The position numbers were made by a program, and so were the translations under genes. The notes below the pieces were generated by a model. That model made no database searches, had not been told where the DNA came from, and worked only from the letters and a program-made list of their open reading frames with translations. Of a stretch of DNA of 59,660 bases, positions 19,321 through 22,091 are shown piece after piece (the stretch's first letter is position 1; each line of letters starts with the position of its first letter). Source of the DNA: Clostridia bacterium (GTDB taxonomy: Bacteria; Bacillota; Clostridia; Oscillospirales; CAG-272); assembly GCA_017518975.1 (NCBI GenBank), contig JAFWTH010000050.1, forward strand, positions 1 through 59,660, read 5' to 3'.

Positions 19321-20100
19321 TCAGCCGAGGCTCTCGGCGACCTTCATAACCTCTTCGCCGCTTACGCCGCCCGACTGTATACATACGGTGAAGTTTTTGT
19401 CGCCGAATTCAAGTCGGACGAATTCATGATCTTCGCCATCGTAATAATAGAAGACGTCGAACATAAGGGCGGGCATTCCGTTAACGGTCGTCTCTGCTGA
19501 CATTTCGAGCGCTTCGTCGGAATATCCGGTTTCCCGGCTTCCCTCCTGAATGTAGATCACGATATACGGAGGATGAGCAACGCCCGGCTCGCCCGGCGCG
19601 GTAACGTCGGCGGGAGTGACTATTTCGAATATACGTGTCTGATATCCCATATCAGGCCAGTATTCGGCGTCTCTGGCGCATAGAACGAGTCCTTCGGGAA
19701 CGTATCCGACGAAAAGATCGGATATGTCCTTTCCGTCAAAGAAAGAACCGTCGTCGTCAGGACCCGCAAACCTGACCCAGATGTAGTCGTTGACAACTCT
19801 GTATATCGTACCGGTCACCGCCGCTCTCACGTTTTTGTTCAGCATCAGCGCGGCGGAGGAGGCGGAGATCAAAACCAACACTATCACGGCGACGCGTCTC
19901 AAAACTTTGAGCGCCGCCGAACCGCGCTCCTTTCTCTTCGCCGCTTTGCCGTACTTCAGGCAGTCTTCCTCGCTCGGCGGGAACGCCTCGCGCAGTTCTT
20001 CGTCCGACGGAAGAGCCTCGTCTTCCCGGCGGACGTATTCCTCAAACGCCTTTCCGAGAAGGATATCGAGTTCTTCGTCTTTATTCTTTTTCCTATTCAT
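19321..20100 (-). CDS. Anti-sigma factor, single TM, extracytoplasmic DUF4367-like domain
   Basis: Start overlaps the sigma gene stop by 8 nt. Charged cytoplasmic N-terminus, TM segment VAVIVLVLISASSAALML, C-terminal VGYVPEGL...TVNGMPALMF...FGDKNFTV domain. Confidence 0.8.
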   Translation of the reverse strand: MNRKKNKDEELDILLGKAFEEYVRREDEALPSDEELREAFPPSEEDCLKYGKAAKRKERGSAALKVLRRVAVIVLVLISASSAALMLNKNVRAAVTGTIYRVVNDYIWVRFAGPDDDGSFFDGKDISDLFVGYVPEGLVLCARDAEYWPDMGYQTRIFEIVTPADVTAPGEPGVAHPPYIVIYIQEGSRETGYSDEALEMSAETTVNGMPALMFDVFYYYDGEDHEFVRLEFGDKNFTVCIQSGGVSGEEVMKVAESLG

Positions 20101-20647
20101 GATATCCCTCCTTTCTCAACGTTTCTCTGAGGAGCATCTTGCCTCTGTGGATCCTGGTGCTCGCCGTTCGCTCGGGCAGCCCGAGAAGCGACGCCACTTC
20201 CTTTTCCTTATATCCGTGCACGTATTTCAGCACGCACGCGTCGCGGTACAGCTCCGGGAGCGATCCGATCGCCCTCATGACCGTGTCGACCGTCTCGTCC
20301 GCGATCGCCGTCTGCTCCGCGGGAGGCGCAGCGTCCGGGGCCTCTTCGGGAAGCTCCGACAGGGGGACGCTGTCCCTGTCCTTTTTTCTCACCCTGTCGA
20401 GCGCGCAGTTGCGAGCGACGATACAGCATAGGTTTTTGAGCCGCTTCTTGTCGGAGGACTCGATGATACCGACGTTTTTGATGAGCTTGACCATCGCGTC
20501 GTGGACCGCGTCGTCCGCGTCCTGGCTTTCCCGCGTCAGCACTCTGCCCGCGACGAACCGCATAAGCGGATAATACTGTCGGTAGATATATTCGATTAGT
20601 TCTTTATCCGACCGTCTTTCAACAGTCAGAGCAGAAAAAACGACCAT
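20093..20647 (-). CDS. ECF-type sigma-70 family RNA polymerase sigma factor
   Basis: 184 aa. Region 2 (YRQYYPLMRFVAGRVL...DAVHDAMVKL) and region 4 HTH (KEKEVASLLGLPERTASTRIHRGK). Confidence 0.9.
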   Translation of the reverse strand: MVVFSALTVERRSDKELIEYIYRQYYPLMRFVAGRVLTRESQDADDAVHDAMVKLIKNVGIIESSDKKRLKNLCCIVARNCALDRVRKKDRDSVPLSELPEEAPDAAPPAEQTAIADETVDTVMRAIGSLPELYRDACVLKYVHGYKEKEVASLLGLPERTASTRIHRGKMLLRETLRKEGYHE

Positions 20648-20930
20648 AGGATCACCCCGAAAAGGCTTTTCATATGTTAGTACGGCTGAAGCCGTCTTTT
20701 TTTTTCAGAAATTTCAAATATTTTTGAAAGAATCCGGCTTTTCGTTCCGTATTGATAAACAGAAGGGCGTCCGGGACCGACTCCTTCCGGTTCGGGTAAG
20801 AGAGGCAAACGGAAAATGGGGTTTCCTTTTACATTTTACCAAAAAACCGCGAAGAAGTAAACCGACTCGGACGTCCTCCGGTATTATCCGGTAGCGTGGC
20901 ATTCGTCACAGAAGAAAGGAGATAAATGAA

Positions 20931-22091
20931 ATGAAGAAAATCTTAACGCTGACCGCGGCGGCGCTTGCGGCTCTCATGCTGCTTCCGCTCTCCGCGTTCG
21001 CGGCGAAGGACGGCGGCGCCCTGCCGTTTTCCGACGTCAAAAACGGAGAATGGTATTATGACGGAGTGAAAAGCGTCTATGAGTCGAACCTCATGAGGGG
21101 CACGTCCGCCACCGAGTTTAATCCCGGGGGTAAGCTGACCCGCGGAATGTGCGCCGCGATCCTGTACCGCGCTGCGAAAGAGCCCGCGGTCAAAGCCGCG
21201 GCGACGTTTGCCGACGTCGACGCCGGCGCGTACTACGCCGACGCCGTCGCCTGGGCGCAGAGCGAGAAGATCGTGATGGGCAGATCGGCGACCGAGTTCG
21301 ATCCCGACGCGAACGTCAACCGCGCCGAGTTCTCGACGATGATGTACAGATATCTTGAGGCCGGCGATCTCGAGCTTCCCGAAACACGCGACGGAGAGCC
21401 GACGGACGCCGATGATATCCCCGAATACGCCGCTGAGGCGGTCGACGCGCTCTACGACGCGGAAGTCGTCAACGGCAGAGAGAACGGCGAGTTCGATCCC
21501 GACGCGGATATCACCCGCGCCGAAGCTGCGTCCGTTCTGGATCGGTTCTTCGAGAGAGTTACCGTTAGATGGACGAAGTTCTACAGGACGTATAACGAAA
21601 CCTGGGATAACTACGCATGGGTCACCTTCGATCAGAGCCCGGACGGCGGATTTTACAAGGACGCTCGAATTGCCGACCTCACCGTCGGATATATCCCCGA
21701 AGGACTTGTTCTGTGCGATTCGGCAGACGCCGAGTATGACGAAGCTCTGGGATATCAGTTCCGTCTTTTCGTAATATGCGATCCCGCCGACGTTACCGCG
21801 CCGGGCGAACCGGGCTGCACGCATCCTCCGTATGTCGTGATCTACGTTCGGGAGGGCGACCGGGAGACCGGATACTCCGACGAAGCGCTCGCGATCTCCA
21901 AGGAGATCACGGTCAACGGAATGGCGGCGCTTATGTTCGACTTCTGCTTTGAAAGTGGGGGCGAACAGTACGAAAGCACCAGACTTGAGTTCGGCGACAA
22001 GAACTTCACGGTCTGCATGCAGGGCATGAACGTCAGCGGCGAAGACGTTTTGAAGATCGCCGAGAGCCTGACGGTAATTCCCGCAGAGTAA
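20931..22091 (+). CDS. SLH-anchored protein with C-terminal DUF4367-like domain
   Basis: Signal peptide and three SLH repeats (FSDVKNGEWYY..., FADVDAGAYYADAV..., IPEYAAEAVDAL...). The C-terminal 140 aa are ~65-70 % identical to the neighbouring anti-sigma sensor domain. Confidence 0.85.
   Translation: MKKILTLTAAALAALMLLPLSAFAAKDGGALPFSDVKNGEWYYDGVKSVYESNLMRGTSATEFNPGGKLTRGMCAAILYRAAKEPAVKAAATFADVDAGAYYADAVAWAQSEKIVMGRSATEFDPDANVNRAEFSTMMYRYLEAGDLELPETRDGEPTDADDIPEYAAEAVDALYDAEVVNGRENGEFDPDADITRAEAASVLDRFFERVTVRWTKFYRTYNETWDNYAWVTFDQSPDGGFYKDARIADLTVGYIPEGLVLCDSADAEYDEALGYQFRLFVICDPADVTAPGEPGCTHPPYVVIYVREGDRETGYSDEALAISKEITVNGMAALMFDFCFESGGEQYESTRLEFGDKNFTVCMQGMNVSGEDVLKIAESLTVIPAE

Follow-up and report, generated by a model that had tools for sequence, protein, structure and literature searches.

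Extracytoplasmic function (ECF) sigma factors and their anti-sigma partners are among the main signalling devices of bacteria, and for most of these pairs both the signal and the roles of the neighbouring genes are unknown. The locus described here lies in contig JAFWTH010000050.1 of Clostridia bacterium (GenBank assembly GCA_017518975.1), whose whole stretch of 59,660 nucleotides (nt) is called the window below. In it, the outer domain of an anti-sigma factor bound to the membrane occurs a second time on a predicted cell-wall protein with S-layer homology (SLH) repeats, called SLH-A, which is encoded by the divergent neighbouring gene, and this raises the question of what a copy of a sensor does on the wall. 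The answer that we tentatively prefer is that the three genes form one ECF signalling module, in which the wall copy would bind the ligand of the sensor and serve as an inducible sink with negative feedback. The coordinates of all features are collected in Table 1.

The sigma factor has sigma-2 and sigma-4 regions only within its 184 amino acids (aa), which is the definition of an ECF (group IV) factor, and it matches the superfamily model sigma70-ECF of NCBIfam (TIGR02937) at 87.5 bits with a cut-off of 42.9, while no equivalog-level match to NCBIfam was found for it. A membrane protein with a single transmembrane helix, predicted to bind the sigma factor as its cognate anti-sigma factor, is encoded in the same transcription unit, and the pair is kept at all loci compared. 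The sigma stop codon and the anti-sigma ATG overlap by 8 nt (ATGAATAG), and because GGAGGG is also located 7 nt 5' of this ATG, the translational coupling proposed in the first-pass annotation of this DNA is plausible. The anti-sigma factor consists of a short cytoplasmic N-terminus (aa 1-65), a helix crossing the membrane (aa 66-87) and the extracytoplasmic domain (aa 96-259), and its AlphaFold model presents a short helical N-terminus of low confidence, a transmembrane helix at 61-87 and a beta-rich ectodomain with predicted local distance difference test (pLDDT) values of 85-95. From this modelled layout and the matches of its family to the Pfam domain DUF4367, the 259-aa protein is read as a single-pass anti-sigma factor with an outside sensor domain.

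The anti-sigma factor and SLH-A are 57% identical across 188 aa (E 7e-66, BLASTP), and since the homology begins where the anti-sigma factor leaves the membrane, directly after the transmembrane helix, the entire ectodomain has been duplicated. Over a core of 135 codons, pairwise alignment gives 67.4% aa and 73.6% nt identity, with a ratio of nonsynonymous to synonymous divergence (dN/dS) of 0.40 and a dS of 0.63, in agreement with the 65-70% protein identity over about 135 aa that had been estimated by eye of the letters. The near-identical nucleotide stretch quoted in that estimate is the longest exact run between the two copies, 27 nt (TCCCGCCGACGTTACCGCGCCGGGCGA), but it is not significantly long compared with codon-shuffled controls (P ~0.06), and the run alone is therefore no proof of recent gene conversion in the window. 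SLH-A itself has the composition of SLH wall proteins, i.e., a signal peptide (aa 1-24, N-terminus MKKILTLTAAALAALMLLPLSAFA/AK, with cleavage at AFA/AK) and three SLH repeats (about aa 30-205), and binding to the wall is predicted from this. Its open reading frame (ORF) is divergent from that of the sigma factor as had been described, with 283 bp (20648-20930) between the two start codons.

A hidden Markov model (HMM) of the domain finds exactly three copies within the window, and the third, noticed early as a more divergent copy, shares 32% identity with the domain of the anti-sigma factor and 42% with that of SLH-A. Because the SLH parts of the two wall proteins are 73% identical and their C-terminal domains only 42%, SLH-A is a mosaic. 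The initial description of the domain as DUF4367-like is accurate for copy 3, which at 23.8 bits is the sole window copy to pass the Pfam cut-off for DUF4367 (PF14285; 22.1 bits), and for the anti-sigma family, of which 14 of 19 aligned members match at E<=1 (best E 2.8e-10). It is less so for the two copies at the locus itself: the anti-sigma factor of the window reaches 13 bits, with no Pfam match at standard thresholds, and SLH-A gives no match to DUF4367 at E<=0.01. The anti-sigma family is accordingly best classed, by its profile matches, as a divergent branch of DUF4367. An exhaustive profile search detected 1538 clusters of this family (clustered at 50% identity) at E<=1e-3 and 302 at E<=1e-10, most of the members having 225-260 aa and matching the profile end to end; word-indexed searches yielded 26 relatives with the anti-sigma factor and only 3 matches with the copy-3 domain.

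To judge the first proposal of a three-part module, which had named a survey of genomic context as its test, every locus encoding a relative and having enough flanking DNA was analysed, with ORFs scored by BLAST and HMM; the distant representatives P0032 and P0047, found on contigs of 1-2 kb, are outside the context count. The nearest genomes are metagenome-assembled genomes of rumen Clostridia, namely RGIG5957 (sheep omasum, 98%), RGIG2706 (goat) and "uncultured Ruminococcus". A divergent SLH-domain gene is located beside the sigma/anti-sigma pair in the window, in L005, L006, L007, L008, L010, L011, L014, L016 and L032 (L numbers denote related loci), and twice in L009, where two complete modules, about 30% identical to each other, are arranged head to tail at 8087-13557. 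In L001 the contig ends before the SLH gene, and the SLH-side promoter and leader are present. L018 and L019 have a different ECF sigma factor (27% identical) and carry the SLH-domain gene downstream on the same strand, that of L018 being cut by the contig end. Once close relatives are collapsed, the trio is represented in rumen Clostridia by about six independent lineages, which together show two gene orders and two types of sigma factor, and within this sub-family every related module with enough flank, deep paralogous modules included, has an adjoining SLH-domain gene, which supports the three-part module.

No SLH-domain neighbour was found in L020 and L021 or in the more distant families of L022, L024, L027 and L031, whose sigma factors are 29-37% identical, so the association appears confined to the sub-family and is, on these gene neighbourhoods, not a property of all DUF4367-type anti-sigma factors. 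Seen from the side of SLH-domain proteins there is one clear exception, copy 3 of the window (also found in L007), which stands beside a LytTR system instead. As a separate observation on strain variation, comparison of L007 (RGIG5957; 9103-10780) with 19321-20930 of the window gave 97-98% identity for the anti-sigma factor and only 93% for the sigma factor, with an intergenic region identical to the L005 type, a pattern which seems to indicate strain-level mosaicism across the module.

The 283-bp gap between the divergent genes provides the link in regulation. A GAAA(C)-like -35 element combined with a CGT-containing -10 element makes up an ECF-type promoter, and the pattern GAAA-N18-CGTAYTRA has two exact matches in the 59.6-kb window against 0.04 expected, with none of 100 shuffles reaching two. 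Both matches are inside the gap and each faces its own gene; SLH-A is therefore very probably a target of the sigma factor, as the first-pass annotation had suggested. Among modules of the window's sigma type, the consensus is TGAAAA-N17-CGTAYTAA on the sigma side and (T/C)GAAA(G/C)-N17-CGTATTAAT on the SLH side, and paired divergent matches were also obtained in L005-L009, L011, L016, L017 and L032. In seven of the nine tabulated modules, and additionally in L016, the end of the sigma-side motif is 28 nt upstream of the ATG; the exceptions are L009a (the first of the two L009 modules, L009b being the other), scored at 117 nt, and L010 and L014, which have the variant GGTATAAAT. Common to both sides in all these modules are the hexamers and their distance of 17 nt, whereas the spacer sequences vary between sides and from module to module, which argues for two promoters read by one sigma factor, not for a plain inverted repeat. 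The sigma factor would thus drive its own operon together with the divergent SLH gene, and the autoregulation common in ECF factors is suggested by the same motif.

It is conceivable that the SLH gene is not under this sigma factor, the shared motif belonging to some other regulator or pertaining to the sigma-side promoter alone. A housekeeping-type -10 element about 45 nt upstream of the SLH start (TGGTATAAT in L010 and L014, GGTATTAT in the window) would fit this possibility, but the retention of hexamers and spacing on both sides while the spacers diverged, and the restriction of exact motif matches in the window to these two sites, make it very improbable. The SLH leader has a length of 112-296 nt across the modules compared (L005, L008, L009, L010, L011, L014, L016 and L032) and contains the conserved blocks CAGAAGGGCGTCCGG, ATTTTACCAnAAA, GTAAAC and GCGTGGCATTCGTCACAGAAGAAAGGAG; the leader of the window is without a segment of about 68 nt found in L005, L007 and L008. 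RNAalifold pairs CUCCUU near the 5' end of the leader with the ribosome-binding site, a weakly supported pairing from six sequences, and a search of 19000-31000, leader included, against Rfam gave nothing credible.

Two further elements were noticed in connection with these motifs. A hairpin with nine T's behind it, which on the + strand resembles a terminator, is present at 20682-20704 (+) within the spacer of the sigma-side promoter, and its stem sequence varies among modules with the pairing kept by eye. A degenerate third motif match, GAAGAA-N17-CGTATTAT, is found at 28117-28146 (-), with a 14-bp hairpin about 45 nt later (28043-28073); L005, L006 and L007 likewise have degenerate matches, seemingly in the equivalent position, and the element could represent a small sigma-dependent transcript or chance.

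The history of the two domain copies was examined using an identity matrix and a neighbour-joining tree, in which domains of one module lineage, not those of one protein type, fall together. The aa identity between the two copies of one module is 83% in L009a, 71% in L014, 69% in L008, 68% in L011, 66% in L016, 63% in the window, 58% in L009b, 36% in L010 and 35% in L019, and domain identities between lineages are 25-40%. Exact tracts far in excess of codon-shuffled expectation were found in three modules, L009a (103 nt, P<0.0005), L011 (P 0.0005) and L016 (P 0.001); those of L008, L014 and L010 are borderline, and for the window, L005, L009b and L019 significance is not reached. Between the deeper modules L009b and L011, informative sites supporting concerted evolution outnumber orthologous ones (26 vs 13), and the anti-sigma factor of L008 carries an SLH-type domain, 78% identical to that of the window's SLH-A. 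These patterns indicate that the two copies are homogenised from time to time, repeatedly, which fits the position of their coding segments as inverted repeats flanking the promoter region.

Divergence is concentrated in the same part of both proteins. A central patch (alignment codons 46-100, including PADVTAPGEPG in the window) is the hot spot, with a dN of 0.37-0.38 and a dS of 0.95-1.6 in both proteins between the window and L005; the corresponding values for the sigma gene, the N-terminal part of the anti-sigma factor and the SLH repeats are a dN of 0.03-0.07 and a dS of 0.2-0.4. With regard to this patch, the two paralogues of the window (dN 0.28) resemble each other more than orthologues do. 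Overall, both copies are under purifying selection (dN/dS 0.16-0.40).

Such data may also be viewed with SLH-A as a plain member of the regulon, the product of one old domain shuffling with subsequent neutral gene conversion, and with no coupling between the domains. The domain-coding segments, as inverted repeats about 1.9 kb apart, lend themselves ideally to conversion or inversion; in the clade of the window itself, orthology prevails (54 orthology against 12 concerted informative sites in the comparison with L005), the 27-nt run is not significant, and the pair identity goes down to 35% among L010 and L019. Preservation of the trio over about six lineages, with two gene orders and two sigma types, is hard to explain in this way without selection on the combination, and the purifying selection on both copies and the sharing of one hot spot also speak against it; we consider uncoupled output to be decidedly unlikely.

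What is read from the sequence comprises the structure of the genes, the duplicated domain, the conservation of the trio, the motif on both sides and the joint evolution of the copies; the steps of the mechanism are what we infer beyond this. An extracellular ligand would bind the beta-rich ectodomain of the membrane anti-sigma factor and trigger its proteolysis, possibly at VRA/AV just outside the membrane as in RsiV and RsiP, and after intramembrane cleavage the sigma factor would be released to transcribe the operon in which it is encoded and also the divergent SLH gene. The wall-anchored copy induced in this way, having the same binding patch, would then intercept the ligand in the wall on its way to the membrane, and this capture would protect the cell or handle the ligand and at the same time damp the signal. 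The logic of such a design may be expressed as "sense with a copy of what you deploy", as in RsgI6/Xyn10D, and it is this precedent, the parallel hypervariable patch and the spatial logic that lead us to favour a ligand common to both copies.

With respect to the cleavage step, the n-h-c layout of the anti-sigma factor resembles a signal anchor and leads into N-V-R-A-A-V, invariant in the alignment of the 19-member family, and the motif VRA/AV is a possible cleavage site. The pattern (V/I)-x-A-(A/S) occurs about 5 residues past the transmembrane helix in 92 of 131 representatives of the wider family, and the remainder have VRDA, VRSA or VRGA. VRAAV was considered as a universal signal-peptidase site and this was dropped, since about 30% of the wider family breaks the AxA rule; the signal-peptidase step was downgraded for the same reason, and by analogy with RsiV and RsiP site-1 cleavage of this anti-sigma factor by signal peptidase may occur.

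Several observations weigh against a common ligand with the wall copy as a sink. The VRDA, VRSA and VRGA members, about 30% of the wider family, present no AxA-compatible site; the copies of L010 and L019, at 35-36% identity, are a poor fit to identical ligand specificity; and in L005 the patch differs between its two copies. Inverted repeats close to each other can also be homogenised mechanistically, as a neutral process. The promoters have been assigned from motif conservation, and because of the long leader and the possible housekeeping -10 element nearer the gene, control of the SLH gene may be dual, the sigma factor perhaps not being its sole driver. The fold assignment is also weak: Foldseek searches of the AlphaFold model against PDB gave matches to BT_1490, LpqN, Apa, MucB, Tsi3, PsbP and DcrB, with a best E of 1.8e-3 and TM-scores of 0.2-0.5, so weak and mixed that no fold class is assigned; DUF4367 itself may belong to the LolA clan. 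A sequence search of PDB with the family profile found no relative with a solved structure, only a chance match to urocanate hydratase (E 0.61).

The strongest competitor of the common-ligand sink is a direct partnership similar to that of RseB/MucB, in which the wall copy binds the anti-sigma ectodomain and the heterodimer derives from a homodimer. Bound in this way, the wall copy might shield the ectodomain from site-1 cleavage, as negative feedback, or tether it to the wall so that damage to the wall, or dissociation induced by a ligand, triggers cleavage. Continual homogenisation is typical of paralogues that keep a homotypic interface, and some members of the family have two, three or four tandem domain copies in a single anti-sigma chain (P0034, P0037, P0038-40, P0055; L021 905-2713), so the domains seem to cooperate. 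Judged from these architectures, some lineages have the extra domain copies in cis, and others supply them in trans, on an SLH protein. The operon controlled by sigma-E includes rseB. The weak Foldseek matches to MucB include MucB in complex with MucA (6in9, 6jau; E 8e-3, TM ~0.24), and the LolA-like protein GerS dimerises via strand swapping (preprint 10.1101/2025.01.13.632879). The geometry is less favourable, since SLH-A is held in the wall by three repeats with a linker of only about 20 aa, and its reach to a domain about 10 residues off the membrane is not guaranteed; furthermore, a patch evolving fast in both copies is more like a ligand surface facing an outside partner, and tandem repeats equally fit multivalent ligand binding. 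We rank the partnership just below the common-ligand sink and regard it as nearly as likely, although taken by itself it is on the unlikely side.

A more specific form, in which the membrane and wall copies as a heterodimer of paralogues make a physical bridge from wall to membrane, so that the module reports the state of the wall or S-layer or relays a ligand captured in the wall, is in our view unlikely. If true, it would be a Gram-positive counterpart of RseA/RseB made from one duplicated domain, with specificity cassettes swapped by inverted-repeat recombination.

The novelty of the arrangement, which the first-pass annotation did not recognise in any described ECF group, can be stated with a qualification. 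The full-text literature searched, which is incomplete, contains no description of a DUF4367 anti-sigma sensor paired with an SLH copy, and in the main text of the 2021 ECF reclassification (PMC7826278) neither DUF4367 nor SLH is found; a close functional precedent nevertheless exists in sigma-I systems. The sensor module of RsgI6 in Clostridium thermocellum is 57% identical to a domain of Xyn10D, whose promoter is activated by sigma-I6 (PMC4711584), so that there, too, a sensor module is the close paralogue of a secreted-protein module and the cognate autoregulated sigma factor activates the promoter of the latter. The same work used Bacillus subtilis as heterologous host for sigma-I of that species. 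Several paralogous modules per genome in plant-fibre-degrading Clostridia are another shared feature. In contrast, sigma-I has sigma-I-C instead of sigma-4, and the sigma factor here has a canonical region 4; the shared domain here is DUF4367-like and not a carbohydrate-binding module or glycoside hydrolase; and the paralogue here is SLH-anchored, always the immediate neighbour, and in concerted evolution with the sensor. RsgI contains RsgI_N together with a SEAL-type, autoproteolytic domain (PMC10328401, PMC10556640), and Pfam searches of the 19-member family detected neither of them in the anti-sigma factor. The likeness is one of logic alone.

In RpoE-RseA-RseB and AlgU-MucA-MucB, similarly, one autoregulated unit encodes the ECF sigma factor, its single-pass anti-sigma factor and, as third member, an envelope protein, with RseB/MucB modulating the cleavage of the anti-sigma factor and MucB showing weak fold resemblance to the ectodomain here. 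These systems are Gram-negative, however, RseB is soluble and not wall-anchored, and it is no paralogue of the periplasmic domain of RseA; no Pfam match to MucB_RseB was found in the window proteins or the 19-member family. With SigV-RsiV and SigP-RsiP, the module would have in common a single-pass anti-sigma factor as direct receptor and a signal-anchor-like transmembrane segment followed by a small-x-small motif. Signal peptidase makes the ligand-dependent site-1 cut in RsiV and RsiP (PMC6066255, PMC4183432, PMC8844934), and sensing in the SigP system involves a separate protein. The RsiV cleavage site, however, is in DUF4179 with amphipathic helices, its C-terminal domain, with lysozyme as ligand, is unrelated to the domain here, and no wall-anchored RsiV paralogue is described; DUF4179 gave no match in the 19 anti-sigma family members at E<=1, and only the AxA-like motif past the transmembrane helix is shared. 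Because the defining domains are absent, the module falls outside the RsiV, RseB/MucB and sigma-I/RsgI families, each of which it resembles in one aspect of logic. At the level of the Pfam family it is related to DUF4367 (PF14285) proteins such as the extra domain of Bacillus subtilis SsdC, and in a paper on GerS/SsdC DUF4367 is described as an add-on to a LolA-like lipoprotein (preprint 10.1101/2025.01.13.632879).

Table 1. Positions in the window of the module genes, domain copies, promoter motifs and neighbouring genes.
Feature	Position	Strand	Evidence
ECF sigma factor, 184 aa	20093-20647	-	Pfam Sigma70_r2 (E 8e-11), Sigma70_r4_2 (E 2e-13), Sigma70_ECF
Predicted anti-sigma factor, 259 aa	19321-20100	-	8-nt gene overlap with sigma; AlphaFold model
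Anti-sigma ectodomain, copy 1, divergent DUF4367-like beta domain	19324-19815	-	BLASTP, HMM, AlphaFold
Juxtamembrane motif V-R-A-A-V (aa 91-95), candidate signal-peptidase-type site-1 cleavage site	19816-19830	-	Invariant columns V91 R92 A93 A94 V95 in 19-member alignment
SLH-A, 386 aa: signal peptide, three SLH repeats, C-terminal copy of the anti-sigma ectodomain	20931-22091	+	Pfam SLH x3 (PF00395), E 1.3e-31; BLASTP vs anti-sigma
Domain copy 2 on SLH-A (aa 226-381)	21606-22073	+	Domain HMM E 1.6e-60; 63% aa identity to copy 1
Sigma-side ECF-type promoter motif GAAAA-N17-CGTACTAA	20677-20706	-	Exact pattern match; -10 ends 28 nt before sigma ATG
SLH-side ECF-type promoter motif GAAAG-N17-CGTATTGA	20726-20755	+	Exact pattern match
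SLH-A 5' leader	20756-20930	+	Conserved blocks including GCGTGGCATTCGTCACAGAAGAAAGGAG directly before the start codon
Second SLH-domain protein, 369 aa	29057-30166	-	Pfam SLH x3, DUF4367; not beside a sigma/anti-sigma pair
Domain copy 3 on the second SLH-domain protein	~29075-29506	-	Domain HMM; Pfam DUF4367
Three genes downstream of SLH-A: two SLH proteins and a 702-aa protein	22313-28015	+	ORFs, Pfam

The three genes downstream of SLH-A are syntenic only in the window's own clade (L005, L006, L008) and absent from other modules, e.g., L011. No strong terminator was found before about 28000, and on this layout they may be co-transcribed with SLH-A. The 702-aa protein has no Pfam domain beyond SLH, a 664-aa protein of this set has an internal duplication of about 190 aa, and a guess made by eye of an SGNH esterase in the C-terminal part of the SLH protein at 22313-23737 received no support from Pfam. 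Between this cluster and the copy-3 gene, a ParE toxin/RelB antitoxin pair (Pfam E 1.9e-8 and 1.3e-10) is encoded at 28169-28776 (-). The copy-3 gene is divergent from genes for a LytTR response regulator (30445-31179) and a histidine kinase (31181-32575), and the ECF motif was looked for and not found upstream of it or of the other SLH genes of the window. The closest relative of its domain is that of the L019 SLH protein (51%), encoded downstream of the different ECF sigma/anti-sigma pair of that locus.

The module is compact and recurrent: the whole outer domain of a sensor is also placed, as predicted, on the wall, probably under control of one and the same sigma factor, with joint evolution of the two copies. 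With about 1,500 clusters at 50% identity the anti-sigma family is a large one; it is found in rumen Clostridia, most of them uncultured, and is without a solved structure. Since the C-terminal domain of SLH-A is in effect a soluble, secreted version of the sensor, it offers a handle for finding the ligand. A logic documented until now for biomass sensors of the sigma-I/RsgI type would gain an ECF example with this locus, which also suggests a testable design principle, in which a sensor is combined with an inducible, wall-anchored copy of itself.

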